DNA from: an uncultured Spirochaetota bacterium
GTDB taxonomy: Bacteria > Spirochaetota > Brevinematia > Brevinematales > JAOACQ01
Assembly: GCA_963783575.1 (NCBI GenBank)
Contig: CAWAOD010000015.1
Coordinates: 32,001-96,000, forward strand
Length of the DNA: 64,000 nucleotides
Direction of reading: 5' to 3'
A program made the position numbers and the translations under genes. Positions within the stretch are counted from its first letter, which is position 1. The number at the start of each line of letters is the position of its first letter. The notes below the pieces were generated by a model. The model worked only from the letters and a program-made list of their open reading frames with translations, was not told the origin of the DNA and did no database searches. Shown here one piece after another: positions 1 through 16,151 of the stretch.

Positions 1-180
1 AGCTTCATATAGGCCAAAGCCAGGAATATCGACAAGGGATTTTGAAAGGTTGCCCTGCGGATCGGCGTCAATAACCAGCGTTTTGTGCCCCATTGCCGCC
101 AGCCAGATCGAAAGGTTGAAGGTTAAAGTTGTTTTACCAACGCCGCCCTTTTGGTTGGATAATACGATTGTTTTTGACAT
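1..180 (-). CDS. parA: ParA/Soj-family ATPase, 5' part only (runs off window)
   Basis: Manual translation from ATG at 180: [46 protein letters not shown], with deviant Walker A (KGGVGKTT) and DADPQGN motif. Confidence 0.9.
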
Positions 181-190
181 AGCCAGCCCC

Positions 191-466
191 CTAATTGGAT
201 TCGGGGGCTTTGAGACGCATTTCTTTCTTCACATTTCCCAACAATGCGTTTAAATGAACGTAAGCCCGGCGGAAATCCAGAAGATTAACCGTAGCCTGGC
301 CGTTGAAGTATTCAATCTGCGCCTGAGTTAGACCTTCGCCTGTGAAGGTAAATTTTCCGGCTGGCTTTTTGGCTTCTCTGGCAAGTTCGACTTTTTCAAC
401 CGAATAGCCGAGGCAGATATAATACCCGGCCTCGTAATAATCCGAAGTGATTAAGGTTTGCAACAT
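191..466 (-). CDS. Small phage/mobile-element-type hypothetical protein (DUF5659-like)
   Basis: 91 aa ORF, strong RBS AGGAGG, directly upstream of par[14 protein letters not shown]-terminus resembles small phage proteins (family assignment tentative). Confidence 0.6.
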
Positions 467-718: not shown

Positions 719-1447
719 ATGGGTAAATTTTTGTCAAGCACAATTTTAAAAAGAAGAAAAAGAAATACTTACTTGATTGGTAAAAACTTTAAAGAACTTA
801 GAAAAAATGAAGGATTTACACTTGAAGTCTTGTCCAATAAGACCAAAATTCATATTGAACCATTAAAGCAATATGAAAGTAATCTATACTCACCAAACCT
901 AAATAATCTTAATAAGCTCTCTAATTTCTATGGTGTTTCTATCGATTTTCTTATCCTATGGGACAAAACTAATTACATCAGAAGTACCAGGTTAATTGAA
1001 CTGTCGAAAATTATTGACAAACTCGACCAGGTGAAACGGTTTCAAGTTGAATCCACAGCCATGACCCTTATAGGAGATAAGATTTCCAACGTTTTCGTTA
1101 AAGAAGATTCTTTTGATTTGACCAATGATATACATTTAAACCTGAAACAGCTTCGGGAGAGCAGTAAAGTTTCACAAAATAATATTGCTGATTATCTAAA
1201 CATTTCTCAAGGCTTGGTAGCAAACTATGAACGAATAACTATCCCTCCACTGGATAATTTAATCAAGCTTGCAGAGTTCTTCAGTGTGTCCATTCATTCT
1301 TTGGTTACAGGAGAAAATCTGACTTTTCAGTTAGCTAACAATGGATTGAAAGATTCCGTCTTGAAAGCAGACCAGTTGCTTAGTATCAAAGATAAAAGTT
1401 TTCTCATTCTTTTGATGGATAAAATTATCATGGAAACAAAAACCTGA
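719..1447 (+). CDS. XRE-family regulator with two tandem HTH_3 domains
   Basis: Two repeats of the pattern LK.LR....SQ..IA..L.IS......YE....P....L.KLA.FF.VS. Confidence 0.85.
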   Translation: MGKFLSSTILKRRKRNTYLIGKNFKELRKNEGFTLEVLSNKTKIHIEPLKQYESNLYSPNLNNLNKLSNFYGVSIDFLILWDKTNYIRSTRLIELSKIIDKLDQVKRFQVESTAMTLIGDKISNVFVKEDSFDLTNDIHLNLKQLRESSKVSQNNIADYLNISQGLVANYERITIPPLDNLIKLAEFFSVSIHSLVTGENLTFQLANNGLKDSVLKADQLLSIKDKSFLILLMDKIIMETKT

Positions 1448-1629
1448 TAACTTTATCGTCCCCAAATAAACAAAAGCATTGAAATTAAAGAATAGCTTCT
1501 TGTCCCGACATTCGGCTCTCGTCGGGCACCCTTGAAATCTCCGGCGCGTTCACCGTCCTCACACTGCCTGCGCTTTCAACGGTGCCACTCCTCAAGCCGC
1601 CGGTTTTTCCGGTGCGCCACTCGCCTCTC

Positions 1630-1657
1630 TCTTAACATAATTTGCCTTATCGTCAAG
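1630..1657 (-). promoter_or_regulatory. Xer dif-like site, 6-bp central region
   Basis: Minus strand CTTGACGATAA-GGCAAA-TTATGTTAAGA; right arm matches the XerD arm TTATGTTAAAT. Confidence 0.65.
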
Positions 1658-1761
1658 CAAGCGACACAATCGCACTGAATATACCGATTTTGATTTTTTA
1701 AACAATAAGCTTCTGAATTTCCTGTCTTTCCTTCATCCCGAAGGCTCAATGGCTGCAAACG

Positions 1762-1790
1762 CCTGCCGCTAAGGCTAAATTATGTTAAGT
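1762..1790 (+). promoter_or_regulatory. Xer dif-like site, 7-bp central region
   Basis: CCTGCCGCTAA-GGCTAAA-TTATGTTAAGT. Confidence 0.6.
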
Positions 1791-2229
1791 TGTCTCAGTT
1801 CTACTTTTTTAAAGCTTTATCCTTTCCGGTTCTTTCATCATTAGGTTCTGAGCCAAACGTTCGGCGGCGCCACACCGGAAAAACCGGGCTGGCGCTTCGG
1901 CGACAGACTGCGCCATGTCCCACCCGCCCATACGTCCGCCTTTAGCCTGTGCCATCATCAAGCCCCTTTCGGACTCCCATCTTCGGTTATCAAAAAACTG
2001 GAATTTAAAGATCTTTCTTTTTCAGATCCACCCAGCCATGAATATTATACCATTCAATCAAGAATTATCAAGGGTAAAGTCGCTGGCCCGCTCCCGGATT
2101 CTGCGGAATCCGCCCTTGACAATTCTTGCTTTCGCTGGTTTTGCGGTTAGGCTGGGCGGATATTAATTAATAAAACTAAAGTAATTTTTATATTATTCGA
2201 CATATATTATAAAAAAAGAGGTTAACTCT

Positions 2230-3048
2230 ATGAATCACAAGAGAATTCAAATTCTGAATATCTACTCCAGACAAAAAAAATCTTCAAATAATATTTTATC
2301 TGATGTAATAACTATAACATTAATTACTTTGATATTCTCTATCGTATTTTATTCATATGAAATAGGTTATGCCGACTATTTTGGTTACAATTATTCATTA
2401 ATAAAAGTAACACTTTTTGGAAGAATACTTTCAATTTTTTCTTTGTCATTGTATTCTAATTTTACCGTTATTATTGTTCTCATTTTTACCATTATTATAT
2501 TATTATATGCACGTATGCTATCACCAAAAAAGGTTATTCCGTATAAGACAAAAGTTAAAATATTAATTCCAATTTTACTATTGTCAATTAAATACTTAAT
2601 TATACCCCCCGTTATGTTTCTGCTCATTAAATATCTCGTATCTGATAAACATCTTGTCTCTTTTAATTACATAATTGTTCCAATATATGTGATTCTTCTC
2701 TTAATTAATATCCAAAAATATTTTAAAGTATTAGACAGATTTAAAAATATAAGTTCTTTTTTTATAGATACATTAAATGATTATGGAAGTATATTCACCA
2801 ATTATATTTATATCTCAATATTTTTGATTTGTATGTCCTATTCTGCAGGTTATAATTACGCTAAAAACAAGAAAATTTTTGAATCTTACGATAATGGAAC
2901 GAACCTAATAATTAATCATTACAATGATTATTCTATTGTTAATTCCAGAATAAATGTATTAAATACTAATAAGGTATATTTTTTCCTTAAAAATGAAGAT
3001 TTAACGAATAAGTATATAACAAATGTTTCTATTACGAATACCAATTAA
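2230..3048 (+). CDS. Hypothetical multi-pass membrane protein (very AT-rich cargo gene)
   Basis: 272 aa ORF with about 5 hydrophobic segments; far lower GC than its flanks. Confidence 0.7.
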   Translation: MNHKRIQILNIYSRQKKSSNNILSDVITITLITLIFSIVFYSYEIGYADYFGYNYSLIKVTLFGRILSIFSLSLYSNFTVIIVLIFTIIILLYARMLSPKKVIPYKTKVKILIPILLLSIKYLIIPPVMFLLIKYLVSDKHLVSFNYIIVPIYVILLLINIQKYFKVLDRFKNISSFFIDTLNDYGSIFTNYIYISIFLICMSYSAGYNYAKNKKIFESYDNGTNLIINHYNDYSIVNSRINVLNTNKVYFFLKNEDLTNKYITNVSITNTN

Positions 3049-3359
3049 CAAACCCCCAGTAATCAACAACACCAGCGACAGGCAGAAAAATCAAGGATGA
3101 GCGCATCAGCGCGAACGACGACAGGAGCTTGTCCTTGATTTTTCTGAATGGAGCGGTATAATTCTTTTTACTGGGGGTTTTTAAATGATCGGTGCTTTAT
3201 CTTGATTTGATTTCCCGGGAGCCGAACGGCACTTGATAGAATAAAAAAAACCTCGCCGGCGCACGGGCGGGTCGGGGCCAGCGACAAAACTTGATGACGG
3301 CGCCAGCCCTGTTTTTAGCGCCGCGCCTTTGCCTCTACCCCGCTTTTACACCCCGGCAA

Positions 3360-3388
3360 AGTTAACATAAGTTCCGCTTATGGGCTGT
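3360..3388 (-). promoter_or_regulatory. Xer dif-like site, 7-bp central region
   Basis: Minus strand ACAGCCCATAA-GCGGAAC-TTATGTTAACT. Confidence 0.6.
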
Positions 3389-3490
3389 AATTCCTTCCAC
3401 TGAGCCGTTTTAATAACCGTAAAAGCTGATTTAAGTTTAATAAGAATTGAAAATATATGGCTTCAGAATCGACGCGATTTACTCCCCTGC

Positions 3491-3518
3491 ACAGACCATA
3501 AGCGGACTTATGTTAAAG
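3491..3518 (+). promoter_or_regulatory. Xer dif-like site, 6-bp central region
   Basis: ACAGACCATAA-GCGGAC-TTATGTTAAAG, canonical 11-6-11 layout. Confidence 0.7.
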
Positions 3519-3974
3519 CAAGCGGCGGGGATCAGGCTTTGCCTGTCCACGCAAAAACAGGCGGTTTGACGAACCCGCTGTAGCGAACGTAGGCGGTGCT
3601 GACAGCCGGAAGCGCGCCGCAGTGAACGGAAGCGGGTGAGGAAAGCCGAGCTGGCTTTCTACAGCCTCCATGCCCCCGACTCCGCGACAATACTGCATAT
3701 AGCGGCTCTTATTCCGCTTTGCATATATACCCAAACCCGCTCAAAAAACACATGAGATGTTTTGGATATATACTCAAAGCATTCATTTCCTTTTCAGGTT
3801 AGAAAATATTAAATATATACTTAATGTTTTAAACTCTTTACATATATAGCTAAAACTGTTATCTGCCGAGGGGAAAATAACTTCTCTCGGATATATCTAA
3901 AGAAGACACACCTTCTACAGCTCCACCCAACAAAAAAAGCCTCAAGCTTCTTCTGCCTACAGGGCTTGTTAAAA

Positions 3975-4844
3975 TCATTTCTCTATGCTATATCTGTATA
4001 CATCCTTCCTTGTCATTCCAAATACCACATAGGAACTGTCCGACTTCCAGTTAAAAAAATACGATGCCAGAGAAGCATTGTTTGTCAATGTCCTTAAAAC
4101 CTTCTGCTTTTGAAGGTCTATGAAATATAAGAGATTTTGTTTATCTTGGCAGATCACTGTCCTTTCATCAGGCGAAATCGTGAAATAGTCCATAAACACG
4201 GTCACATCTACAGGCAATTTCACTTTCTCAAACTTTTTCTGACTGATGGAATAGCGGTAAATTTTCGATTCTTCCGGACCGTCCAGAAAATTCTGATTAT
4301 TCAACAAGTAAATTAAGTCCGGATTCTTTACTGCTATAGGTAGAAAATACCATTCTTTTGAACTATATAGCTGTTCATTGCTTCCCGTGGTAATATCAAA
4401 TTGATATAGCTTATGGACTTCTTTATCCCCTTTACCTTCCATTGCATCATAATATATTCTTTTTGAATCATAAGACCAGCAATAATAATTATGTTTTGTG
4501 GCTATAACGGAAATTATTTGATAATTGCTACTATTAATAATTTCAAGGCGTTTATTGCTATATTTTGTAAGATATAAACCATCTGGACTCATTTCATTAT
4601 ACCTATTGCTATCATTTTCAAATACAACTACATTTGTTATATAATAACCAGCATTATGATAAATCACATCATCTTTTGTTAATAATTGTTTAATAAGTAA
4701 GCTATCATTTTTACTGTCAATAATTAGCCCCCATAATTCACCTTCATCAAATTTGTAGATTCTTTCAAGTTTGTCTAATCCAAATAAATATGAAAAATTA
4801 AAAATGCTCATAACCAAAATGATGATATAAATTTTTCTTTTCAT
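3975..4844 (-). CDS. Secreted TolB-like beta-propeller protein, putative Rhs immunity protein
   Basis: Signal peptide; SPDG, WSYDS, ISPDE, WKSDS blade motifs; 10 bp downstream of the Rhs stop. Confidence 0.6.
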   Translation of the reverse strand: MKRKIYIIILVMSIFNFSYLFGLDKLERIYKFDEGELWGLIIDSKNDSLLIKQLLTKDDVIYHNAGYYITNVVVFENDSNRYNEMSPDGLYLTKYSNKRLEIINSSNYQIISVIATKHNYYCWSYDSKRIYYDAMEGKGDKEVHKLYQFDITTGSNEQLYSSKEWYFLPIAVKNPDLIYLLNNQNFLDGPEESKIYRYSISQKKFEKVKLPVDVTVFMDYFTISPDERTVICQDKQNLLYFIDLQKQKVLRTLTNNASLASYFFNWKSDSSYVVFGMTRKDVYRYSIEK

Positions 4845-4854
4845 AAATTCTCCA

Positions 4855-7800
4855 TTATTTAGAAAAATAATAAGTTAAGTCCGGTATTACCGAAGTTCTA
4901 AATCCGTAGTTTAATGTACCGTTAGGAGTTAAATTATTTAGTATATTGTCTCTCCCTTGCTGAGCTATTGCCGGTGCATAATAATCTTCTTCTTGGTAAG
5001 TAACATAAACACCTTTTCCTGGAGCTAATAAAGCCATATGATTATCATTTGCTACATAGACCAGTTGTCCATGATTTGCCATTTCCTGAACATCATATCC
5101 TTGGTTTGCATCCATAGTTCCATATGAATTATCTGTAAAATACTTTGTCGCATACGGTACACCCCAATGACCTACGGTTTCCAAATCTGAATTTCCGGTA
5201 TATAGCTTGGTTACATAAGATGCGTAACGATCGCAATAAGTCTGGGTTTTTGTTTCAATTGATGGAAAGATTCCAACCCAGACTAATTTTGAAGTAGTGG
5301 TAGGATTGAAAGCCGGGTTATCATACGCAATTCTTTCTGTGAAGTAAAGTCTTTCCGCATCAGTCATGTTATGATCGTCAGCAAAATCTTTAATACTATC
5401 ATAAGTCAAGCTATTAAAAGGTATTTTGCCATTTTTGTATTGATTCTTAAACTCTTGAAATGCATCATTTACTTTATTAAGACTTTCCTGACCATGCCAA
5501 GAAGTATCCCTATAATTTGTTGGATTATCTGTATAATTCGGGTTTATCGGAGCATTATAATCATTTGCGTAATTTACTGAACCTGTAATTGGATTTATAT
5601 TAGCTCCATAATCATTCGCATAATTGCCGGTATGCAAAGATGTTGCTTCTATACTTGGAGTATTCCCCGCTACTGAACTGGGGGGAGAAATGGGGGTTTG
5701 ATTATTAAATTCCGCTGCTACTTCCGGTGTTGCCGGTACAGGATTGGATAAATTATATTCCATAGCATCCATAAGGTTCTTATAATACTCCAACTCTCGT
5801 TCCAGATTAACATCATCTCCTAGTTTGTTCATAATAATTTTAGCCGGGTCAAAATAAAAATTGCTGTTCAATGAACCGACCCGCTGTCCGTCAAGATACC
5901 CAGAGGTTGCACTGGCCTGCAATCCCGCGTAATCGGTAAATCCATACCCTATATTAGCGTTTTCGGTTCTGCCGCGGTAGTTTCCATTTTTGTCGTAATA
6001 CCAGTCCATGCCGGCACCGATATCAAACCCCTGGTTATACCCGGTCTGCTGGTTATAGCCGTAGCTTAATCCAAAACCGTAATTCATTCCCTCGTATTCT
6101 CCATACTCTCCATAATTCCACTGAGCGTGCAATCCGATATTGGCTCCGTTTGACGTTATCCCTGCGTTTGTCCCGATATATTCACTCTGAGATTTCCACA
6201 TTCTGTCATATTCATCGCCGTTCAGGCTGCGTTCCATTGTTCCGCCGAAACTTAAACCTGCTCCTACCTGTAGATATTTAGGGTCTCCTATTCCTATCCC
6301 GGCATTGACATTCCAGTTGAAAGTTTCCGTACGGTATGTATAAGAATGCTTAAAATCAACTCCGCCGCCGAAATAAACAGGAGCTCCGATAGGAGCAAGG
6401 TTCACTTCTAAAGACGAGCCTTCTTCTATATAATATCCTTCATTCTTAGACTTCCCGTATCCATATTTTACAAACCCTAAGTCTATACCGATGAATTCTT
6501 CATAATTAGGATTAACCTGTTCATTTACATAGTTATAACAATCTAGAGAAACTCCTTGATAGCTTGAATCCTTTGCTTCGAACATCGCTCCCACAGCATT
6601 TGACATCACATCATCGCCGAGAGCTGTGGATGATACCTGTCCCATTGATGCGCCCATGAAAAGGCTGCTTATTATATCTTCGCCGTAAGGGTCCCAGAAA
6701 GTCATTGGATTGTTAAGCCCATAAACATACCAGTTCAACCCCGCCGGCCCATATCGTTTATCCGGGTCTTGAATGGGGTCCTGGGTGATAAACCGGCCTG
6801 TGGAAGGGTCAAGGAATCTTGCCCTTGCATAATACAATTTGGATTCACTGTCAAAATAATGCCCGGTGTAACTTATCCCTTCTTTCACTGAGGAGGAGGA
6901 GGAGTTCGTCTCCCCCTCTCCAGACTTGGATAGGGGGCCGGGGTTTGAGGCTATTTGTTCCCCGAAAGCTGTATAGTCGTATGTCTGATAAGAAAATGAA
7001 TGCGTGTTAATAGTGATAGGCGAGTCATAGAGTTCGCCTCTGACTGATCCCTGGGCATCTTTCAGGTAGACAGACGTCTTAACCGAAATCTCCGCCTCAT
7101 AGCTGTTGATCATTATGTTATTCAAATAGAATGTCGAATCATCAAAGAGAATATTCTGCCCGTCATATACAAACCTTATTGCGGGTTGATCAATGCTTCC
7201 TGCCGCGTCCGATGTTTCGTTCTTGGATATCCGCAGGTTATTGACATCGTAAACATTCTTTGTTATTGTAGTATTCCCGTTTTCTAAAAGGTTATACTCC
7301 GTCATCAAATCCCTGGAGTCATACTTGAACCTCTCCGTCTTCCCGGAGCCGTCCTTCTTAACCAGCCTCCCCGCCCGGTCGTATGTATACGAAACACTCC
7401 CCTTAGTGGATTGTTCGAGCATAAGCCTGTTATCGTTGTCATAGGTATAATGGGTAATGTTATTGCAAGCCGAAGGCGTAGCAATCTGATTGGTCGGTGT
7501 GGAATAAAAGCTGGTTGTCTTAACCAATCTGTTCCCGCATGCATCGTAAGAAAAAACCTCGCTGTTGCTCAGACCGTAATTCGCAGAAACCAGCCTGTAT
7601 GTCTTATCATATTGGAATGTGGAGACACACAATTGTGCGCCTGCCTCACTTACCGTCTCCTTAGTCCTATTGCCTACCTTATCGTAGGTGTAGCCATAGC
7701 TCGATAAAAACTGAACCTGTGCTGAGCTGGTATACTGAGCCTGTCGAAGTGCTGACGAAGCATTTGTGGTATTTGATATTGAAGTAAGCCTATATATATT

Positions 7801-10800
7801 ATCATATCCATAATTGACTGTCAAGCCTGTTGAATACTGTTTGTTTGTTATCCTCCCCATAGAACTGTAGGAATAGCTAATTTGAAGGTTGGTTGTGTTT
7901 GTGGATACGGCTGTTTCAAGACTTATCTGGTTCAATCCATCATACTTATAAACTACCGTTTTCCCTCCGGTCCCCGAGTGATTTTCCGCGCCAGCGGAAA
8001 ATTGTATCGAGGGGATCGTCACCATCCTGGTTCTATTCCCGTTCCCGTCATATTCATACGCCAGCGTCTCCCCGTTCTTCTCGTCATACCTGTTTGTCAG
8101 ATTCCCCGCGCTGTCATATTTATACCTGTACGCGCTGAAATTGTCGCCGGCCCATGTCAGTCTCCCCAGCCCGTCATACTGAAAGTGCTTTACATTATTA
8201 TCCGAATATGTCTTTGAAACCGGCTGGTTATTTCTGTTATAACTAGTGCTGATCGATCCCTCGCCGTTCTTTTCCAGAATAATGTTTCCGTTATTGTCAT
8301 ACTGGTATTCCGTGGTAAACCCTAAAGCCGTGGTCTCCTTAACCTTGTTTCCGCGTATATCATATTCCAGCGTTGTCCTGTTCCCCTTCGCATCAATCGC
8401 CGCAGTCATGTTCCCGAAGGTGTCATAATTATACGATGTCGTATTGTTAAGGGCGTCTTTCACCGCGATTGTCTGCTTCCCGTACCGATAGGTCGTTGTT
8501 TGGTTCGATTCCGCATCGGTAAAAACTTCAACCTCGCACTTTAAACCGCTCCCCGAGTGATTTTGCGTCAGCAAAATTGTATCGAGGGGAGCAATGCTGT
8601 ATTGGAACGATGCCCTGTTAGTCATCGCGTCCGTCGACCTTACCATTCTTCCTGCCCAGTCGAATTCCCTTGCAAGTTGATTGTTCTCCTTATCAACGGT
8701 CGTAACCGCGTTGCCGAATGAGTCGTAGATATTAGAATTGGTCCCACCGTAGGGATCAATAGATGCGGTTAGCCTGCCCAGTGAATCATATCTGAAATAG
8801 TTTGTAAAACCGTTTTTATCGGTTGCGGTCAGAACCTTCCCCATTAAATTATAAATATAATTTTCTGTATTATGATTTGCATCGGTAATTTGTATTTTAT
8901 TCCCGAATCCGTCATAGGTAATTGAGGAAGATATTGCCGCCTGATAATTCATATCGTTTTGAGAGGTTGTCACTATGTATGATCCATCCGCCGCATAAGT
9001 ATATGAGATATTAACTAAATTACCCTCCCTGTCGATCTGGCGGACGGGCCTGTTCAGATCATCGTAATAAGTATAAGCCGTATTTCCGTTATAATCTATT
9101 TCTGATGTTTTATTCCCGTAAACATCGTATCCGAAATATTTTTCGATATTATTCACATTTCTGTTGAAAAGAATCTGCCTGATAATATTACCACTGTTAT
9201 CGTATATATTGGTAGAATTAATATACTTTGTTGATCCGTCATTTCTTGATTCAAAAGTGATCCTTCCCGCAAAATCATAAGTATTGCTTATATTCAGTGC
9301 CCCGAAAGGCGTTTCCTCCGTCCTTCCGGTTTCTCTTCCGTAATAATCGTATAAATAAGATGTTGTATACCCGAATCTGTCAGTTTCCGAAATTTTCCTG
9401 CCCCAGGTATCATAAGCCGAAGACTCTCTCGAACTGTCCGGATAAATCGTATTTGTAATATTTCCCCAACAATCATACATATTGGATGTAGCGTACTGAA
9501 CCGCTGCCAATTGCCCATTGCTGAGCGTGCTCCCGCTCTCGCTTTTCCCGGTAAGGTTCCCCATCGCGTCATAAACATAGTTGTTAGTCAATGCCAACCC
9601 CGCCCCGCCATTGAGAGCCGAAGGCGCGGCAATCTCATTCGTTTTTTCTCCCAGCATGTCATACCGGTAAACAACCGTTCCCCCAAGTTCATTAGTCGCC
9701 GACACCACCCTTCCCATTTGATCGTAAACCCAATTCCTGCCGCTGACGGTGCCATTATAAATTATGCACTCGGCTGTTTTATTCCCATAGATATCAAAAT
9801 ATGTCAGGTTGGATGTATGCGATAAATTATTGATTTTATTGGTAACATTCCCCCTGAAATCATACTCGTATTTTTCGTCCCGTAAAGAATTGCCGGTAAT
9901 GATCCTCATGAGGTTCCCGTTATTATAGTATTGATATCCTGTAATCCTACCACCCTCGTTCTTCTGCAAAACCCTGCCTGCGTTATCGTAGGAAAATGTT
10001 GTCGTAAGCCCCGAAGGATCTATCTTTTGCTGCAGCATTCCGCCGCTATTGTATGAATTTGTTGTCTCACCGGAAATATCCGGGTCCGGGGTAAAATACC
10101 TCTTTTCATCGGTGATTTTTCCCGATTTGTTATAAGAATTATTGATGACCTTTACAGGATTTCCAGCGTTGAGGTTTTTCCATACCTCAACAGTATTCCC
10201 CCGAAAGTCCCTGACTTCCTGCGTCCACTCGGCCTGTCCGGCCCCATTCCCATTCACAGTTTTCCATGTCGTAATTTGTGTAAAATTTTCACTACTATAG
10301 GTTATTATTGAATAATTATAATTTACTGCCCTGCTGCTTCCAATCCCAGCCGACTCCGAAGCGTTCGTTACCCTTCCCAGCGCGTCATATTTAAATGAAT
10401 TCGTTATTCCCTTGAAATTCCAGGTAACCGCGGGCTTCCCGTTATAATAAGCCCCGCTGTCATCCGTATACTTATAAAACGTTTCCCTGCACTTTGTTGT
10501 GTTTGTAATGAAATATTTATTGGTCAGAAGCCCGCCCTGCGAATATAAATTTGTTTCAACCATGCCATTCGGATATATAACCGAGGACAGGTAACCCTCC
10601 GCAGTGTAAGAATAATTATAAACCGTTAACCCGTTCGTCACCAAAGGAGCCTGCGCTGAGCCTGCCGAAGTGACGAAGGGCCCCGCTGCTTTCCAGATCA
10701 TCCTTCCAAGATTATCATACCCGAATATGGTAGCCCCATTGTCCGGGTTGTTTACCAGGTTTGTTTCCCCAAAAGCATCAACATTGAATGTCGTAATAAA

Positions 10801-13800
10801 GTCATGCCCGCTGTCATTCCCGCTCCTGTGTATTTCCTGCAAAACACCATTATTATAGTAAAAAGCAGTCAGGTTCCCGCCGGGCGCATTTATATTTGTG
10901 ACCTGTCCAAGAGCGTTATAACCGTACGCGGTAACTCCGCTTAAAGGATTTGTCTCCCTGGCAACCCGGTTTTTTAAACTGTATTCATAACTGTATGTTT
11001 CATTCTCAGGTAAAACCTTGCGAGCGATATTACCAAACGCGTCATAATTATATGCCGTCGTACCGTTGTCGGGATTAATTTCCTGTATGATTTTTCCCGA
11101 GCCGTCATAAACATAATTATATTTATTCCCGTCAAAATCTGTCATATTTGTCATCAAACCGTTTTTATCGTAAGCAGTAGTTTTTACCTGCATAAGCGGA
11201 TTCGTTTCCGAAGTTACTTTCCCTTCAGCCGAATACGCGTATAAATTTGTGCCGCCGTCCGGCTGTATTTCCTCTTCCGGAAGACCGGCCGTATTGAATA
11301 TTGTCCCGGATATTATACCTCTGCTATGATAATAATTATATCCTGTATTATTTAATATTGTCGGGTCTGTAATTACGGTCTTAATGACCCTGTCCATCTG
11401 GTCGTAATAATACATTTCAACTCTTGATCCCCATGATTTTGTCTTCACCGGAACATTATTATAAGTCAAAGTATAGCCGTAGCTTATCGATGTATTGTCC
11501 GGCTGCTCCTCGTTTGTGATTCTTCCGCATTCATCATATTGATATGTCCAGCTTCTGGATATACCGGTATTTGTATCGATTATTGTTTTTGTTTCAAGCC
11601 CGCCCATTGCGTTGTATGTCAACACTGTTTTCAACCCATTAGGGTCTATCTCTAAAATCTGCCTGCCTTCCGCGTCAAAAGCCTTTAAAGTAATAAAGCT
11701 TCCATTACCGCCCGGTGCTATTAAACCCGGGTTGCCAAGTGCGTCATAATATACAAGGTTTGTTGTTTGATTTGCCCCGTCATCGTTAATCTCAGAAATT
11801 GGTTTATTCAAAAGGTTGTATTCGACATTTTTTGTCCTGGACCCCTGCCTGACAACCATAGGGTTGCCGAAAATATCGTATTCATAACTGGCGCTTCTCC
11901 CCGCCGGATCAGTTTCGCCGGAAACAAAACCCATTGAATTGTATGTTTTTATCCAGTTGTTAGTTTCAAAATCCTTCATATTTGTGATGTGTCCCGCAAG
12001 GTCATAGCTGTATGTTTTATAAGCAGGACTTCCGCCGGGTATTCTGTACCTCGCGCTTTCCCTGTAAAGCCTGTTTCCATATTTATATTCCCAATCCTGT
12101 TTGGTCCCATCCGGGTAAATTTCATTTATCTTATTTCCAAGGTTATCGTAATTATAGCTATGGCTATAAATAACCATGCCGTTCGAAGCCGGGTTGAATA
12201 CCGAATATATAAGGTTTGTCACATTATTTCTGAAATCGCTGTAATTGGTCGAACGATTGGTATACCGGTCTATTTTTTCCATACCGTGATTTGTGAAATA
12301 AGTGTTTGAAGAAAATAATGTCGATGCTGTAATATTTCCGCTTCCATACCCGACCGACAATGAAGTGTTCCGGCCGAGTCCGTCATATGTATAGACTTTT
12401 ACATACGATTCATTGCTTAGAATTGCCGTTTCACTTGTCATCCTGCCCATAAGATCATATACATAACTTACGGATTTACCGCTGTTCGTGTCGGTTTGAT
12501 TTGTTAACAGTCCGATACCGTTGTAAGCATAGCTTATATCCGCAACATTGCTGGAAATGATAACAGCCGGACTGTTAAACCCCCTGCCTGTCATCTTCTG
12601 GTTTGTCAGGTTGCCTGCCACATCATAAGAATAACTGTAAGCATAACTGTGATTTTCCTGATCCAGGTCTTTTTCTGTCTGCCTATCATTAACGTCATAC
12701 TTATAAACTATCTTCTTTTTCCCGTCCTTGTCATAGCTTTCCTGTGTTTTATTCCCGTTAGTATCATACCAGTAATTGACTTCATTATTGTTCGGGAAAC
12801 TCACTTTTGAAAGCCTTCCGCAATAATCGTAATAAAACCTTGTCGTATTGCCGTTAGGATCAGTTACAGCGGTCTTTTCCCCCCAGGCGTCGTACGCCGC
12901 TCTGTTTGTCGAGCATCCCTGGATGCCCTGGCTTATTACATTACCCCTAGCGTCGTATTGATAAAAATTTGTAACCAGATCCGCTCGGTTCTCTGTCAGG
13001 ACTTTTCCGTAAATATCGTTTTGGTATAAATAAACCCCGTTATCCGGATTGATGATCTTAGCTAAGTTATGATCTTTATCACAAACATAAGTGGTTTGAC
13101 AACCGTACATATCGGTACTTGTTTTTGTATAACCTCCGCCTTCTTGGTAGTTAAATATAATAGTCGCCAGGTTATAAAGGAGCTTACCGCCCGATCTGTA
13201 GAAACCCTGGCTTGTCAATTCCCCGTTTGTATCGTAGCTCATATGGAATTCGGTTTTATCGGGCTGGACGATTTTTGTCGGCCTGCCGAGATATTTGGCT
13301 GTTGTATCGGAGTATTCATATTTCCATCGCAAACCGGGCACAGTTTTATTTGTTACGTTTCCGAACTCGTCATAAATATAACTGTATGCGTTTGTAAGTT
13401 CATTCGTAAAATATGTCATGTTCCCTTTTTCATCATAAGAAATACTTACTTCGGATAAATTTGGATATCGAATATATGTAACCCTCCTGTCATCATAATT
13501 TGTGAGGGTATTATCATATCTAAATTTAAAGCCATTACCGTTCAGATTTGTGAAAAATGTATTGCCGGGGGTATAGTCGAATGTTCCTACCCAATAAGGC
13601 GTATGAACCGACACAGCCCTATACCGGCTCTCAATGTTAGTGACATTGAATTCATTCGTGTTTGTATTTGTATAATCAAAGTAAGTATAAGATGAATTTC
13701 TGTATACATTACCATCGAATTCGCTGCTGGAATTTAAAAGAGCAATCCAGCTGAACATCCTCCCCGCGTTGTAATCCATTATTTGTAAGTCTATTTCCTT

Positions 13801-16092
13801 TAAGCTGTTCTGCATATCCTGGATCTGCTGATTCAGGTATTCCACCTGAAGGTTGTAATAATCTTCAGAATAATTATACGTCTTTGAATATTGATAATTT
13901 GCTGACTGTAAAATAGTTAGCCAGTTTATTATACTATTTGTCATTTGCTGGTATTCGGCAAGAGTGTTTATTTGATTTGTTTGATTATTAATAAGATTGG
14001 AATTATATTGATCCCAGGATAGTATACCTTTATCATATTCGAATTTTAAATAATACTGCCTTACTTGATTGTATATGGAAAGAGCATAGGGGTAGCCTGC
14101 AGGAGTATTATTTGTCGCCAAAAAACCATAAACCGCGTTTGAGATATCGCTTAAATTTAATTTTAAATTCGTTGATTGCCCTGAGAGTTCGCTTTTGTAT
14201 TTATTAATATTTGAAATATTTATATTTATATTAGATATACCTTTTAACAGTTCATTTTTATTGCTTATCATCGTATTAGTCATAGCGACCAGGTTTGATG
14301 AATTTGGGTCGCAGGCAAGAACATTGCTGTAATTAAATGTGTATTTAAGAGAGCTGCCGTCAATTGTAAGGTTCAGGCGTTCCAGATTCCGGTTTTCACC
14401 GGTAAATGTAAGGTCAGCCCTATTCGATTTATCTATTGCAATGCTATTGATCAGGTTTCTCTCCGAATCACTTTCATTCTGCTCTTCATTCCTCTGAAAA
14501 TCCACTTCATCCACCTGGGTGCCGCCGGGGGAAAATGTTTTGACGGTTATAAGTTTCTGGAATGAGTTATAATCATAGGTTTTGTAAGCCCCGAAACGGT
14601 TGTAATTTGTCTGAAGCGCATATCCCGCATAAATATCAGGCGTACCCGGGGTGCTTCTTCTGAAAGAATGTATCTTTCCGTCCGCTGTATAGTAGCTGAC
14701 GCTCCACCCAAAGGTAGTATTGTCCGAAAGCCATTTACGGATATCCGAAATAAAATCGTTTGTATTGATAAGCAATGTATTCCTGTTTATTGAATTTGTC
14801 AGGAAAGCTGTATTTACCAATGATGCGGCGGCGTCCCCGAACAGCCCTTTGGTTATATTGGTTCCATTGTTTGTTTCAAAAATGTTTGTTATATAACCTT
14901 CCTGTTTAAAACCATATGTAACATTTGTATAAGGTCCGCCTTGATTTGTAAGAATACTGGTTGTTGATTCCCATACTTCATTTGGACTATAATTTGTAAC
15001 AGTATGCTTTGCTAAATCCGGGCAGATGGTATATCCGTAAATATTGTTAGTAGAACTTGCAATATTGGTAATCACTTCATTTACAGAATTTTCCCCGCTG
15101 TTCAGAAATCCTCCGAATTTCAGAATATCCCCCGCGGAGGTTACAACTACTATCACGCTGTCCTGTGTTCCGAACGCCCCGAAAATCCTGATATCACTGA
15201 AATATCCGCCGTCCGTCGTATCGCCCTTCCTGATAAACTGGTTGCTTGAATTCGCGATCATTTTGTAATAATCATACATTCTGGGAGGACCCCCGAATAA
15301 ATGCATAAATGCCGCCATAGTGGCCGCTGAATCAGCTTCGCTTTGCCCGATATACTGGAACTTCTGCGAAACCCCGCTTCCGTCCTGAATGATCACCTCG
15401 TTCTTCTCAAAACTGTACCAGAAGGAATAGTTTTCAGTTAAAAACCATCCAGGCCCCATACCAACATTGCCTGAATATTGTGAACCGTACCTCGCGGAAA
15501 GCTGTATCGGTATCAGGTGGTCATTCCCCACAGGAGTCCGGTAGATCAGAATATTTTTAGACAATTCGCCTGTTACCGGATCGACAAAATCCCCATAAAA
15601 CCCTTTTTCTATCCTGTGCAGTTCGTCCTGGCAGGAATTCCCATAATACTTCGCCGGGTCGCCGAGCTTAAGTTTTATTCCTTCCTGCGATTCCTTCTGA
15701 AAATTCGCAGGATTGGGTACTTCATTGTCCAGAATCCCTTCAATAGCCGTAGGATCTGCATCCTGGCCGGCGCTGAATGCGTAATACCTCTGCAGATGGT
15801 ATTTTTTATAATACATATCCTGGAATGTATTAAGCGCCTTTTCCGTCTCATTATTCCAGAAACCGCTTTCATCTATAGGATTATAATTTGTCAGATTAAA
15901 TGAAAGGACCTTATTCAGTTTTTTCTGAATCCCTTTCAAGCTCTCACTGTATAAATAAGGATTTTTATCATCGTTTTTCTGAACAATATCAATTTTATTC
16001 CGCGTTACGACAAGGCAGAGATTGCTTCCCGCCCATATAAGCGCCAATAATGTAAAAAATAAAAACAAGGTTATTACAACTTTCCTCATCAT
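4855..16092 (-). CDS. Giant RHS/YD-repeat polymorphic toxin with Sec signal peptide, PG-binding-like N-terminal domain and ~600 aa C-terminal extension
   Basis: Dozens of YD..G repeats; Rhs core YTGHYFDSESKLYYARARFLDPSTGRFITQDP...NWYVYGLNNPMTFWDPYGE; GGAGG RBS favours ATG at 16092 (MMRKVVITLFLFF) over 16116. Confidence 0.92.
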   Translation of the reverse strand: MMRKVVITLFLFFTLLALIWAGSNLCLVVTRNKIDIVQKNDDKNPYLYSESLKGIQKKLNKVLSFNLTNYNPIDESGFWNNETEKALNTFQDMYYKKYHLQRYYAFSAGQDADPTAIEGILDNEVPNPANFQKESQEGIKLKLGDPAKYYGNSCQDELHRIEKGFYGDFVDPVTGELSKNILIYRTPVGNDHLIPIQLSARYGSQYSGNVGMGPGWFLTENYSFWYSFEKNEVIIQDGSGVSQKFQYIGQSEADSAATMAAFMHLFGGPPRMYDYYKMIANSSNQFIRKGDTTDGGYFSDIRIFGAFGTQDSVIVVVTSAGDILKFGGFLNSGENSVNEVITNIASSTNNIYGYTICPDLAKHTVTNYSPNEVWESTTSILTNQGGPYTNVTYGFKQEGYITNIFETNNGTNITKGLFGDAAASLVNTAFLTNSINRNTLLINTNDFISDIRKWLSDNTTFGWSVSYYTADGKIHSFRRSTPGTPDIYAGYALQTNYNRFGAYKTYDYNSFQKLITVKTFSPGGTQVDEVDFQRNEEQNESDSERNLINSIAIDKSNRADLTFTGENRNLERLNLTIDGSSLKYTFNYSNVLACDPNSSNLVAMTNTMISNKNELLKGISNININISNINKYKSELSGQSTNLKLNLSDISNAVYGFLATNNTPAGYPYALSIYNQVRQYYLKFEYDKGILSWDQYNSNLINNQTNQINTLAEYQQMTNSIINWLTILQSANYQYSKTYNYSEDYYNLQVEYLNQQIQDMQNSLKEIDLQIMDYNAGRMFSWIALLNSSSEFDGNVYRNSSYTYFDYTNTNTNEFNVTNIESRYRAVSVHTPYWVGTFDYTPGNTFFTNLNGNGFKFRYDNTLTNYDDRRVTYIRYPNLSEVSISYDEKGNMTYFTNELTNAYSYIYDEFGNVTNKTVPGLRWKYEYSDTTAKYLGRPTKIVQPDKTEFHMSYDTNGELTSQGFYRSGGKLLYNLATIIFNYQEGGGYTKTSTDMYGCQTTYVCDKDHNLAKIINPDNGVYLYQNDIYGKVLTENRADLVTNFYQYDARGNVISQGIQGCSTNRAAYDAWGEKTAVTDPNGNTTRFYYDYCGRLSKVSFPNNNEVNYWYDTNGNKTQESYDKDGKKKIVYKYDVNDRQTEKDLDQENHSYAYSYSYDVAGNLTNQKMTGRGFNSPAVIISSNVADISYAYNGIGLLTNQTDTNSGKSVSYVYDLMGRMTSETAILSNESYVKVYTYDGLGRNTSLSVGYGSGNITASTLFSSNTYFTNHGMEKIDRYTNRSTNYSDFRNNVTNLIYSVFNPASNGMVIYSHSYNYDNLGNKINEIYPDGTKQDWEYKYGNRLYRESARYRIPGGSPAYKTYSYDLAGHITNMKDFETNNWIKTYNSMGFVSGETDPAGRSASYEYDIFGNPMVVRQGSRTKNVEYNLLNKPISEINDDGANQTTNLVYYDALGNPGLIAPGGNGSFITLKAFDAEGRQILEIDPNGLKTVLTYNAMGGLETKTIIDTNTGISRSWTYQYDECGRITNEEQPDNTSISYGYTLTYNNVPVKTKSWGSRVEMYYYDQMDRVIKTVITDPTILNNTGYNYYHSRGIISGTIFNTAGLPEEEIQPDGGTNLYAYSAEGKVTSETNPLMQVKTTAYDKNGLMTNMTDFDGNKYNYVYDGSGKIIQEINPDNGTTAYNYDAFGNIARKVLPENETYSYEYSLKNRVARETNPLSGVTAYGYNALGQVTNINAPGGNLTAFYYNNGVLQEIHRSGNDSGHDFITTFNVDAFGETNLVNNPDNGATIFGYDNLGRMIWKAAGPFVTSAGSAQAPLVTNGLTVYNYSYTAEGYLSSVIYPNGMVETNLYSQGGLLTNKYFITNTTKCRETFYKYTDDSGAYYNGKPAVTWNFKGITNSFKYDALGRVTNASESAGIGSSRAVNYNYSIITYSSENFTQITTWKTVNGNGAGQAEWTQEVRDFRGNTVEVWKNLNAGNPVKVINNSYNKSGKITDEKRYFTPDPDISGETTNSYNSGGMLQQKIDPSGLTTTFSYDNAGRVLQKNEGGRITGYQYYNNGNLMRIITGNSLRDEKYEYDFRGNVTNKINNLSHTSNLTYFDIYGNKTAECIIYNGTVSGRNWVYDQMGRVVSATNELGGTVVYRYDMLGEKTNEIAAPSALNGGAGLALTNNYVYDAMGNLTGKSESGSTLSNGQLAAVQYATSNMYDCWGNITNTIYPDSSRESSAYDTWGRKISETDRFGYTTSYLYDYYGRETGRTEETPFGALNISNTYDFAGRITFESRNDGSTKYINSTNIYDNSGNIIRQILFNRNVNNIEKYFGYDVYGNKTSEIDYNGNTAYTYYDDLNRPVRQIDREGNLVNISYTYAADGSYIVTTSQNDMNYQAAISSSITYDGFGNKIQITDANHNTENYIYNLMGKVLTATDKNGFTNYFRYDSLGRLTASIDPYGGTNSNIYDSFGNAVTTVDKENNQLAREFDWAGRMVRSTDAMTNRASFQYSIAPLDTILLTQNHSGSGLKCEVEVFTDAESNQTTTYRYGKQTIAVKDALNNTTSYNYDTFGNMTAAIDAKGNRTTLEYDIRGNKVKETTALGFTTEYQYDNNGNIILEKNGEGSISTSYNRNNQPVSKTYSDNNVKHFQYDGLGRLTWAGDNFSAYRYKYDSAGNLTNRYDEKNGETLAYEYDGNGNRTRMVTIPSIQFSAGAENHSGTGGKTVVYKYDGLNQISLETAVSTNTTNLQISYSYSSMGRITNKQYSTGLTVNYGYDNIYRLTSISNTTNASSALRQAQYTSSAQVQFLSSYGYTYDKVGNRTKETVSEAGAQLCVSTFQYDKTYRLVSANYGLSNSEVFSYDACGNRLVKTTSFYSTPTNQIATPSACNNITHYTYDNDNRLMLEQSTKGSVSYTYDRAGRLVKKDGSGKTERFKYDSRDLMTEYNLLENGNTTITKNVYDVNNLRISKNETSDAAGSIDQPAIRFVYDGQNILFDDSTFYLNNIMINSYEAEISVKTSVYLKDAQGSVRGELYDSPITINTHSFSYQTYDYTAFGEQIASNPGPLSKSGEGETNSSSSSVKEGISYTGHYFDSESKLYYARARFLDPSTGRFITQDPIQDPDKRYGPAGLNWYVYGLNNPMTFWDPYGEDIISSLFMGASMGQVSSTALGDDVMSNAVGAMFEAKDSSYQGVSLDCYNYVNEQVNPNYEEFIGIDLGFVKYGYGKSKNEGYYIEEGSSLEVNLAPIGAPVYFGGGVDFKHSYTYRTETFNWNVNAGIGIGDPKYLQVGAGLSFGGTMERSLNGDEYDRMWKSQSEYIGTNAGITSNGANIGLHAQWNYGEYGEYEGMNYGFGLSYGYNQQTGYNQGFDIGAGMDWYYDKNGNYRGRTENANIGYGFTDYAGLQASATSGYLDGQRVGSLNSNFYFDPAKIIMNKLGDDVNLERELEYYKNLMDAMEYNLSNPVPATPEVAAEFNNQTPISPPSSVAGNTPSIEATSLHTGNYANDYGANINPITGSVNYANDYNAPINPNYTDNPTNYRDTSWHGQESLNKVNDAFQEFKNQYKNGKIPFNSLTYDSIKDFADDHNMTDAERLYFTERIAYDNPAFNPTTTSKLVWVGIFPSIETKTQTYCDRYASYVTKLYTGNSDLETVGHWGVPYATKYFTDNSYGTMDANQGYDVQEMANHGQLVYVANDNHMALLAPGKGVYVTYQEEDYYAPAIAQQGRDNILNNLTPNGTLNYGFRTSVIPDLTYYFSK

Positions 16093-16109
16093 CTCTGATT
16101 CCTCCGGCA

Positions 16110-16151
16110 GCCTCATCCTCCTGCCCCCTTCTCCACTCGCGAAGAAGGAGG
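16110..16151. repeat. Degenerate REP-like palindrome
   Basis: gcctcatcctcctgcccccttctccactcgcgaagaaggagg, decayed copy of 17605-17647. Confidence 0.7.

Follow-up and report, generated by a model that had tools for sequence, protein, structure and literature searches.

A mirrored pair of dif-like sites in a spirochaete toxin-tip array resembles a folded Xer site of the CTX type

The inverted dif-like pair designated copy R is a real, differing variant of the CTX-type folded Xer site, and it belongs to an element family without a description in the literature searched. The two cores of the pair are constrained to base-pair with each other, the arms flanking them are of Xer type, and the pairs are tied to one family of elements. 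The pair probably functions in recombination. We estimate a probability of about 0.5 that it is a folded single-strand substrate for host XerC/XerD, the presumed enzyme, and recombines with same-core sites in sister elements, the presumed partners. The literature searched, which included few subscription papers, described neither this element nor the hairpin.

The window, a stretch of 64,000 nucleotides from an uncultured Spirochaetota bacterium, contains copy R and its mirror image, copy L, on the two sides of a cargo gene (Table 1). The initial annotation described copy R as an inverted dif-like pair 102 bp apart with the cores GCGGAAC and GCGGAC, which is exactly what is present, and the mirroring of its 7/6 asymmetry relative to copy L is borne out by the cores of L. 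The pair folds well beyond chance. The plus strand of copy R folded as DNA forms one long stem (z -4.80), which none of 200 shuffles equaled, and the minus strand has a z of -3.02, with one of 200 shuffles as good. Copy L, which has a loop of 104 nt, has a z of -3.12 (2/200 shuffles as good). An outer stem, absent from the initial annotation, surrounds both copies, and with the stem included the z values are -5.76 for R and -5.66 for L (0/100 shuffles each). A hairpin telomere was ruled out because the flanks beyond the outer stem are not inverted.

Table 1. Positions of the features in and next to the window.
Feature	Coordinates	Strand	Details
Toxin-tip unit genes outside the window, after ParA	G000:C15:24457-32180		Primase-helicase, two tyrosine recombinases, PIN toxin-antitoxin, orphan toxin tip
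Small ORF and start of ParA	1..466	-	
Double HTH repressor	719..1447	+	RstR family, above cut-off; 3' end towards copy L
Copy L, outer stem	1600..1887		Perfect 15-bp arms 1600-1614 and 1873-1887
Copy L, mirror-image pair	1630..1790		6-bp core GGCAAA, minus strand, 1630-1657; 7-bp core GGCTAAA, plus strand, 1762-1790
Separate repeated stem-loop	2030..2175		5' of cargo ORF; z -3.97; further copies within the array
Cargo between L and R	2230..3048	+	272-aa hydrophobic ORF without Pfam or NCBIfam match
Separate long stem-loop	3042..3190		Begins at the cargo stop codon; z -7.47
Copy R, outer stem	3308..3561		3308-3320 pairs with 3550-3561; within a structured repeat of ~450 bp
Copy R, long-core dif-like site	3360..3388	-	C-type arm ACAGCCCATAA 3378-3388; 7-bp core GCGGAAC 3371-3377; D-type arm TTATGTTAACT 3360-3370, towards cargo
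Copy R, loop	3389..3490		102 nt
Copy R, 6-bp-core dif-like site	3491..3518	+	ACAGACCATAA 3491-3501; core GCGGAC 3502-3507; TTATGTTAAAG 3508-3518, D-type arm outward
Probable immunity gene adjoining copy R	3975..4844	-	Beta-propeller-like; assigned from position
3753-aa Rhs/YD-repeat protein	4855..16116	-	3' end shares ~80% identity with an orphan tip of the array

The separate stem-loops at 2030-2175 and 3042-3190 represent a second family of long stem-loops that flank cargo ORFs and recur in the array; the start of one at a stop codon is cassette-like. Judged from ORF sequences, the region of the window from 4855 to 42000 contains the giant Rhs gene and, upstream of it, a gene for a repeat protein of 3412 aa, one for an S8-like peptidase, and genes resembling those of type II secretion. 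The repressor of the window scores 91.7 bits against NF041951 (cut-off 80). The cut-off of this RstR family is also passed by nine of 14 other element repressors, including those of members in which no pair was found.

The genome containing the window (G000) has eight intact pairs, all in what is probably one tandem array, and a second genome of the same genus (G001) has four further ones. In all 12 pairs, a 6-bp core and a 7-bp core pair with each other with a one-base bulge, and the cores, arms and outer stem all change on both sides together. An alignment of the 12 pairs has 92.7% of cells paired compared to 38-48% in slid controls, and two-sided changes occur in 10 of 34 stem pairs, which none of 500 shuffles reaches, but these figures are overstated because the structure was drawn from the same sequences and the pairs are kin. 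The bulge is retained, as are two arm mismatches, one arm position being unpaired in 11 of the 12 pairs. Wobble counts, at 13:4 in this genus, largely from one position, and 22:32 elsewhere, with one mis-placed row in the latter set, do not agree on an active strand. Since the long and short sites retain their own C-type arms in all 12 pairs, the loop is never inverted.

The cores of the 12 pairs fall into the classes GGC(n)AAA (six pairs), GGT(C)AAG (four) and GCGG(n)AC (two). The first two classes are found at both L and R positions, which contradicts the proposal that each copy has its own recombination address. The L and R pairs around one cargo differ in core in five of five units, an outcome that class frequencies alone would give about once in five by hand arithmetic. 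The alternative suggestion of structure-dependent recognition with a one-base bulge is supported by the bulged core pairing and the two-sided changes, but the size of the bulge is not constant outside the genus.

Exact matches to the D-type arm occur 138 times in the 4.91 Mb of G000, and the paired ones all cluster at the beginnings of contigs C15 and C5. The two clusters are probably one array broken by the assembly, with contig ends that do not overlap. A genome-wide scan for pairs gave 23 matches, of which seven are array pairs and the other 16 are repeats that are AT-rich or simple, and missed one array pair. From the 3753-aa Rhs gene, the order along the array is toxin tip, immunity gene, R pair, cargo, L pair, repressor, small ORF, ParA, CHC2/Toprim primase with a long P-loop C-terminus, two tyrosine recombinases, toxin-antitoxin genes and the next orphan tip. 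Cargo differs between units, and that at G000:C15:16097-22339 includes a HATPase/restriction-like gene and a radical SAM gene. In one further pair of G000 a group II intron interrupts the D arm of the long-core site (G000:C15:13877-15839, L001), and three more introns of the array are inserted in other structured repeats. The possibility that L and R are the ends of a transposon-like element was rejected, as there is no L past the Rhs gene on C15.

The orientation of the sites alternates along the array, which ends at its far side with a lone 6-bp site (G000:C5:35544). The loops of the copies are 28-106 nt long and variable in sequence, and the copies show reshuffled combinations of inner flank, loop and outer flank. 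The alternation, the shuffling and the lone distal site would all agree with independent duplex Xer sites, similar to pdif modules or plasmid multimer-resolution sites, in which the likeness within a pair resulted from copying between nearby inverted repeats. However, every second site has an over-long core, the cores match better than the outer arm bases, and the outer stem covaries too. Copying would also erase the bulge and the two arm mismatches, and independent duplex sites are therefore considered improbable.

Homologs of the hairpin are found in some members of this element family, in hosts ranging from spirochaetes to E. coli. The C-terminus of the primase has matches in 28 of 401 genomes of the phylum, in 37 plasmid records and in 75 loci of many phyla, and none among 50,697 phage records. 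The proteobacterial unit is composed of a repressor, primase, one PRK01287 recombinase and a toxin tip, and is positioned beside Rhs, CDI or other large genes. The NCBIfam PRK01287 'XerC' subfamily, together with a CHC2 primase and SymE near Rhs/CDI genes, corresponds to the element family bearing the hairpin, of which annotation knows the separate genes only. Pairs are present in ten of 77 regions downstream of the recombinase gene, compared to none of 77 control regions inside the primase gene. Among 13 enterobacterial genomes that were retrieved, eight contained pairs, and in two of the five without one a contig end cuts the locus. Pairs were also detected in 56 of 5426 E. coli genomes, at 108 places. 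Other pairs are located at the 3' end of the repressor gene. Most family members, many of them with the same recombinases, have no pair that could be found; the Leptospira-type members have none with this motif, which a limit of the detector may explain.

A detector based on arms only identified 43 pairs as candidates in element loci totaling 1.69 Mb, versus three in 0.80 Mb around ordinary xerC/D genes. In 36 distinct candidate core pairs, false registers included, 4.28 of six end bases match compared to 1.88 for shuffled partners (0/10000 permutations); since the pairs are kin, the permutation figure is an overstatement. The number of extra core bases ranges from zero to six among these candidates (11 have one) and from zero to four in clear cases. 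A few homologs mismatch on one side, the C side (3/6 and 4/6 in two genomes, 2/6 in Lonsdalea), and several spirochaete pairs have the opposite polarity. The expected covariation of the cores with a constant one-base difference therefore holds for the 12 pairs of G000 and G001, but the constant difference is lost outside the genus.

A loose pair pattern matched 69 stretches of viral contigs, none of them with a 6/7 pair, and blastn with the enterobacterial hairpin found no CTX-like phage and returned chance matches only. A pattern that was too loose gave matches at control level over the 401 genomes of the phylum, with a gap setting that left out the window's own pairs. A pattern applied to 251 genomes of the order gave no matches with a loop-length limit that was too strict, so this is no evidence of absence. 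Alignment of the recombinase to metagenome contigs recovered ordinary xerC/D genes only, which were used as a control.

Other arrangements of the element were observed. In ~1% of complete E. coli genomes the primase-recombinase element is in tandem behind VgrG-Rhs loci, with Rhs-core joints of ~80 bp (L207-L209, L338, L339). Two small circular 'plasmid' records, L125 (NZ_CP072857.1) and L126 (NZ_CP055112.1), are copies of approximately unit length and represent either excised circles or collapsed tandem repeats. Divergent, inverted element copies are found in L093 (G011:C4) and L323 (G496:C78). Near the same elements, L120, L212, L220 and L267 contain related inverted pairs that have a TTCTGTT arm and cores of the 6/6 or 7/7 type and may represent another class of site.

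The enzyme that binds the folded site is, judging from the arms, most likely host XerC/XerD, for which the candidates in G000 are encoded at C6:150633-151514 and C9:589232-590119. The long site of Xenorhabdus matches a variant host dif at 10/11 and 11/11 positions and in the first three core bases. Host enzymes are favored because the arms track this dif variant and because the pair is optional in the family, whereas the element recombinase is not; that the pair is missing from many members with the same recombinases is what would be expected of an accessory used by host enzymes. It is also conceivable that the same folded site is used by the XerC-like recombinase or recombinases of the element, in the way an integron integrase uses attC, for excising or inserting units or cargo. 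The catalytic residues R-K-H-R-H-Y are all kept in the aligned element recombinases, the pair is located 200-450 nt behind the recombinase gene in many members, and all pairs of G000 are inside the array. However, only ten of the 77 regions behind a recombinase gene contain a pair, and the arms are asymmetric like those of host dif. Furthermore, the junctions of the units are in toxin-gene homology, and the element recombinases, the set to which this scoring was confined, reach 105-125 bits against the integron integrase model (TIGR02249, cut-off 265), the two from the window's array scoring 114 and 117. Use of the site by the element's own enzymes is thus regarded as unlikely, though somewhat less so than independent duplex sites.

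The likely chromosomal dif of G000 is at G000:C14:285668, 16 kb from the GC-skew peak; it has the core GATATA and recurs in G001. The cores of the elements begin with GCG, GGC, GGT, GTT or GAA and do not match that of the host dif. No match to a tyrosine recombinase was found on C14, the contig with dif. The pair was rejected as the host dif itself, as it is not a single terminus site and the separate candidate exists on C14. No array was found at dif, even with a compatible core (in G925, the elements are at 0.25 and 2.85 Mb and dif is at 2.05 Mb). The arrays of E. coli are 60-80 kb from dif, and one is at another Rhs-type locus. Their unit is a repeat of 7119 bp bounded by ~80 bp of Rhs core; with this junction in place of a hairpin, the pair was rejected as the attP of the array.

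A scan of 28 loci for single-site scars of the attL/attR type found none, apart from unpaired long sites in two loci. Assembled contigs from four runs, compared with a homolog, contained no joints in any of the four sets, and the RNA contigs end before the hairpin. That neither scars nor insertions at dif are seen would fit a pair with no present role in recombination, such as a structured signal for replication or priming, a site where proteins are loaded, a structured RNA, or a relic attP that was acquired together with the RstR-like repressor. Consistent with this, the ~450-bp repeat around R has several stems, R is positioned between convergent genes, and L adjoins the 3' end of the repressor gene, as attP is beside rstR in CTX (PMC4246890). 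On the other hand, different phyla share the arm-core-arm geometry, in which one core always has 6 bp, and the hairpin is 94-100% conserved in enterobacterial copies, with flanks down to 75-80%. The repeat has no match in Rfam, and a search for a terminator-like site found none. Little probability is assigned to a pair that is now without a role in recombination.

Among 12 distinct enterobacterial copies (of 14 found), the D arm of the short site travels with the outer flank in four of four divergent copies, and the loop variants do not, which places a crossover within ~36 nt around the short core. In E. coli the whole spacer is mosaic, and ordinary homologous recombination could be the cause of the ancestry switch near the short core. 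In one mosaic copy of G000 the switch is at the long rather than the short site.

According to the favored reading, recombination by host XerC/XerD at a folded site, each pair would be one Xer site that exists only once the single strand folds, with three paired bases, a bulge and three further paired bases as its core. The folding presumably takes place in single-stranded DNA in the cell. The pair would be the cis-acting part of a replicating element that includes an RstR-like repressor, a CHC2/Toprim/P-loop primase-helicase, one or more XerC-like recombinases, and a toxin tip with immunity. The element would enter toxin genes by short homology rather than via the folded site, as is shown for the E. 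coli arrays. A single-strand exchange as in CTX phage, where XerC carries it out and replication resolves it, is proposed here by analogy and would then join the folded site to a same-core site in a sister copy, and not to host dif. An exchange at the arm-core edge of the short site would leave all pairs intact, as is seen, and exchanges between same-core sites would let array units grow in number, shrink or circularize. The letters of the core would set which copies react; the variable cargo in this genus lies between two opposed copies that differ in core class. A broader and more speculative reading, to which we give less weight, is that toxin-cassette elements across phyla have made the CTX folded-site trick self-addressed, with host XerCD joining single-stranded DNA to same-core sister copies, and that opposed hairpins of different class exchange the bracketed cargo in this genus.

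For the open question of how toxin-tip arrays are assembled and rearranged, the pair provides a defined site, candidate enzymes, and a version that is testable in laboratory E. coli. A folded Xer site recurs under pairing constraint, away from dif, in a non-phage element of orphan Rhs/CDI toxin-tip arrays from spirochaetes to E. coli. The mirror-image pair in a replicating element that stockpiles toxin tips suggests a second use of the CTX hairpin trick.

The initial annotation compared the pair to the attC sites of integrons. Integron attC sites carry attC core boxes and occur in direct repeat, each gene cassette having one, and group II introns that target attC exist. The likeness extends to a folded strand with an extrahelical base, present in all 12 pairs, and to the copy that carries a group II intron, but the analogy is loose. 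The arms of the pairs are dif-like, without attC boxes, and L and R are inverted rather than one per cassette in direct repeat. The pdif (XerC/D) modules of Acinetobacter consist of alternating inverted dif-like sites round exchangeable cargo, all with 6-bp cores and acting as duplexes. The alternating orientation of sites round exchangeable cargo is shared with these modules. In contrast to pdif, every second core here has 7 bp and base-pairs with its neighbor, the long and short sites form couples round a gene-less loop, and the arrays are chromosomal toxin arrays found across phyla.

The closest known structure is the attP(+) of CTX phage. The accounts consulted (PMC4246890, PMC3089051, PMC5357621) present folded single-strand Xer sites as the means by which filamentous phages enter dif. 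As described there, CTX attP(+) consists of two inverted dif-like sites ~90 bp apart with cores of 12 and 5-7 bp, folds in single-stranded DNA, undergoes one exchange by XerC, has its specificity set by the bases adjoining the XerC arm, and is located beside rstR. Like the CTX-type IMEX RS1, CUS-1 and Ypf, the pairs have two inverted dif-like sites ~90-100 nt apart with unequal cores that can fold into one Xer site. The enterobacterial long sites resemble CTX attP1 at the core end and in the D arm, by comparison with Table II of PMC3089051. However, C-type arms are at the loop in 12/12 pairs here, whereas D arms face the loop in each of the six distinct CTX-type forms with a partner that 20 viral loci provided. 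The bulge is of one base rather than five, and the core of the element does not match host dif, at which the element is not located. Unlike filamentous single-stranded DNA phages without an integrase of their own, each unit of the array encodes a primase-helicase and two recombinases, and unlike in CTX, two opposed copies of the folded site bracket the cargo.
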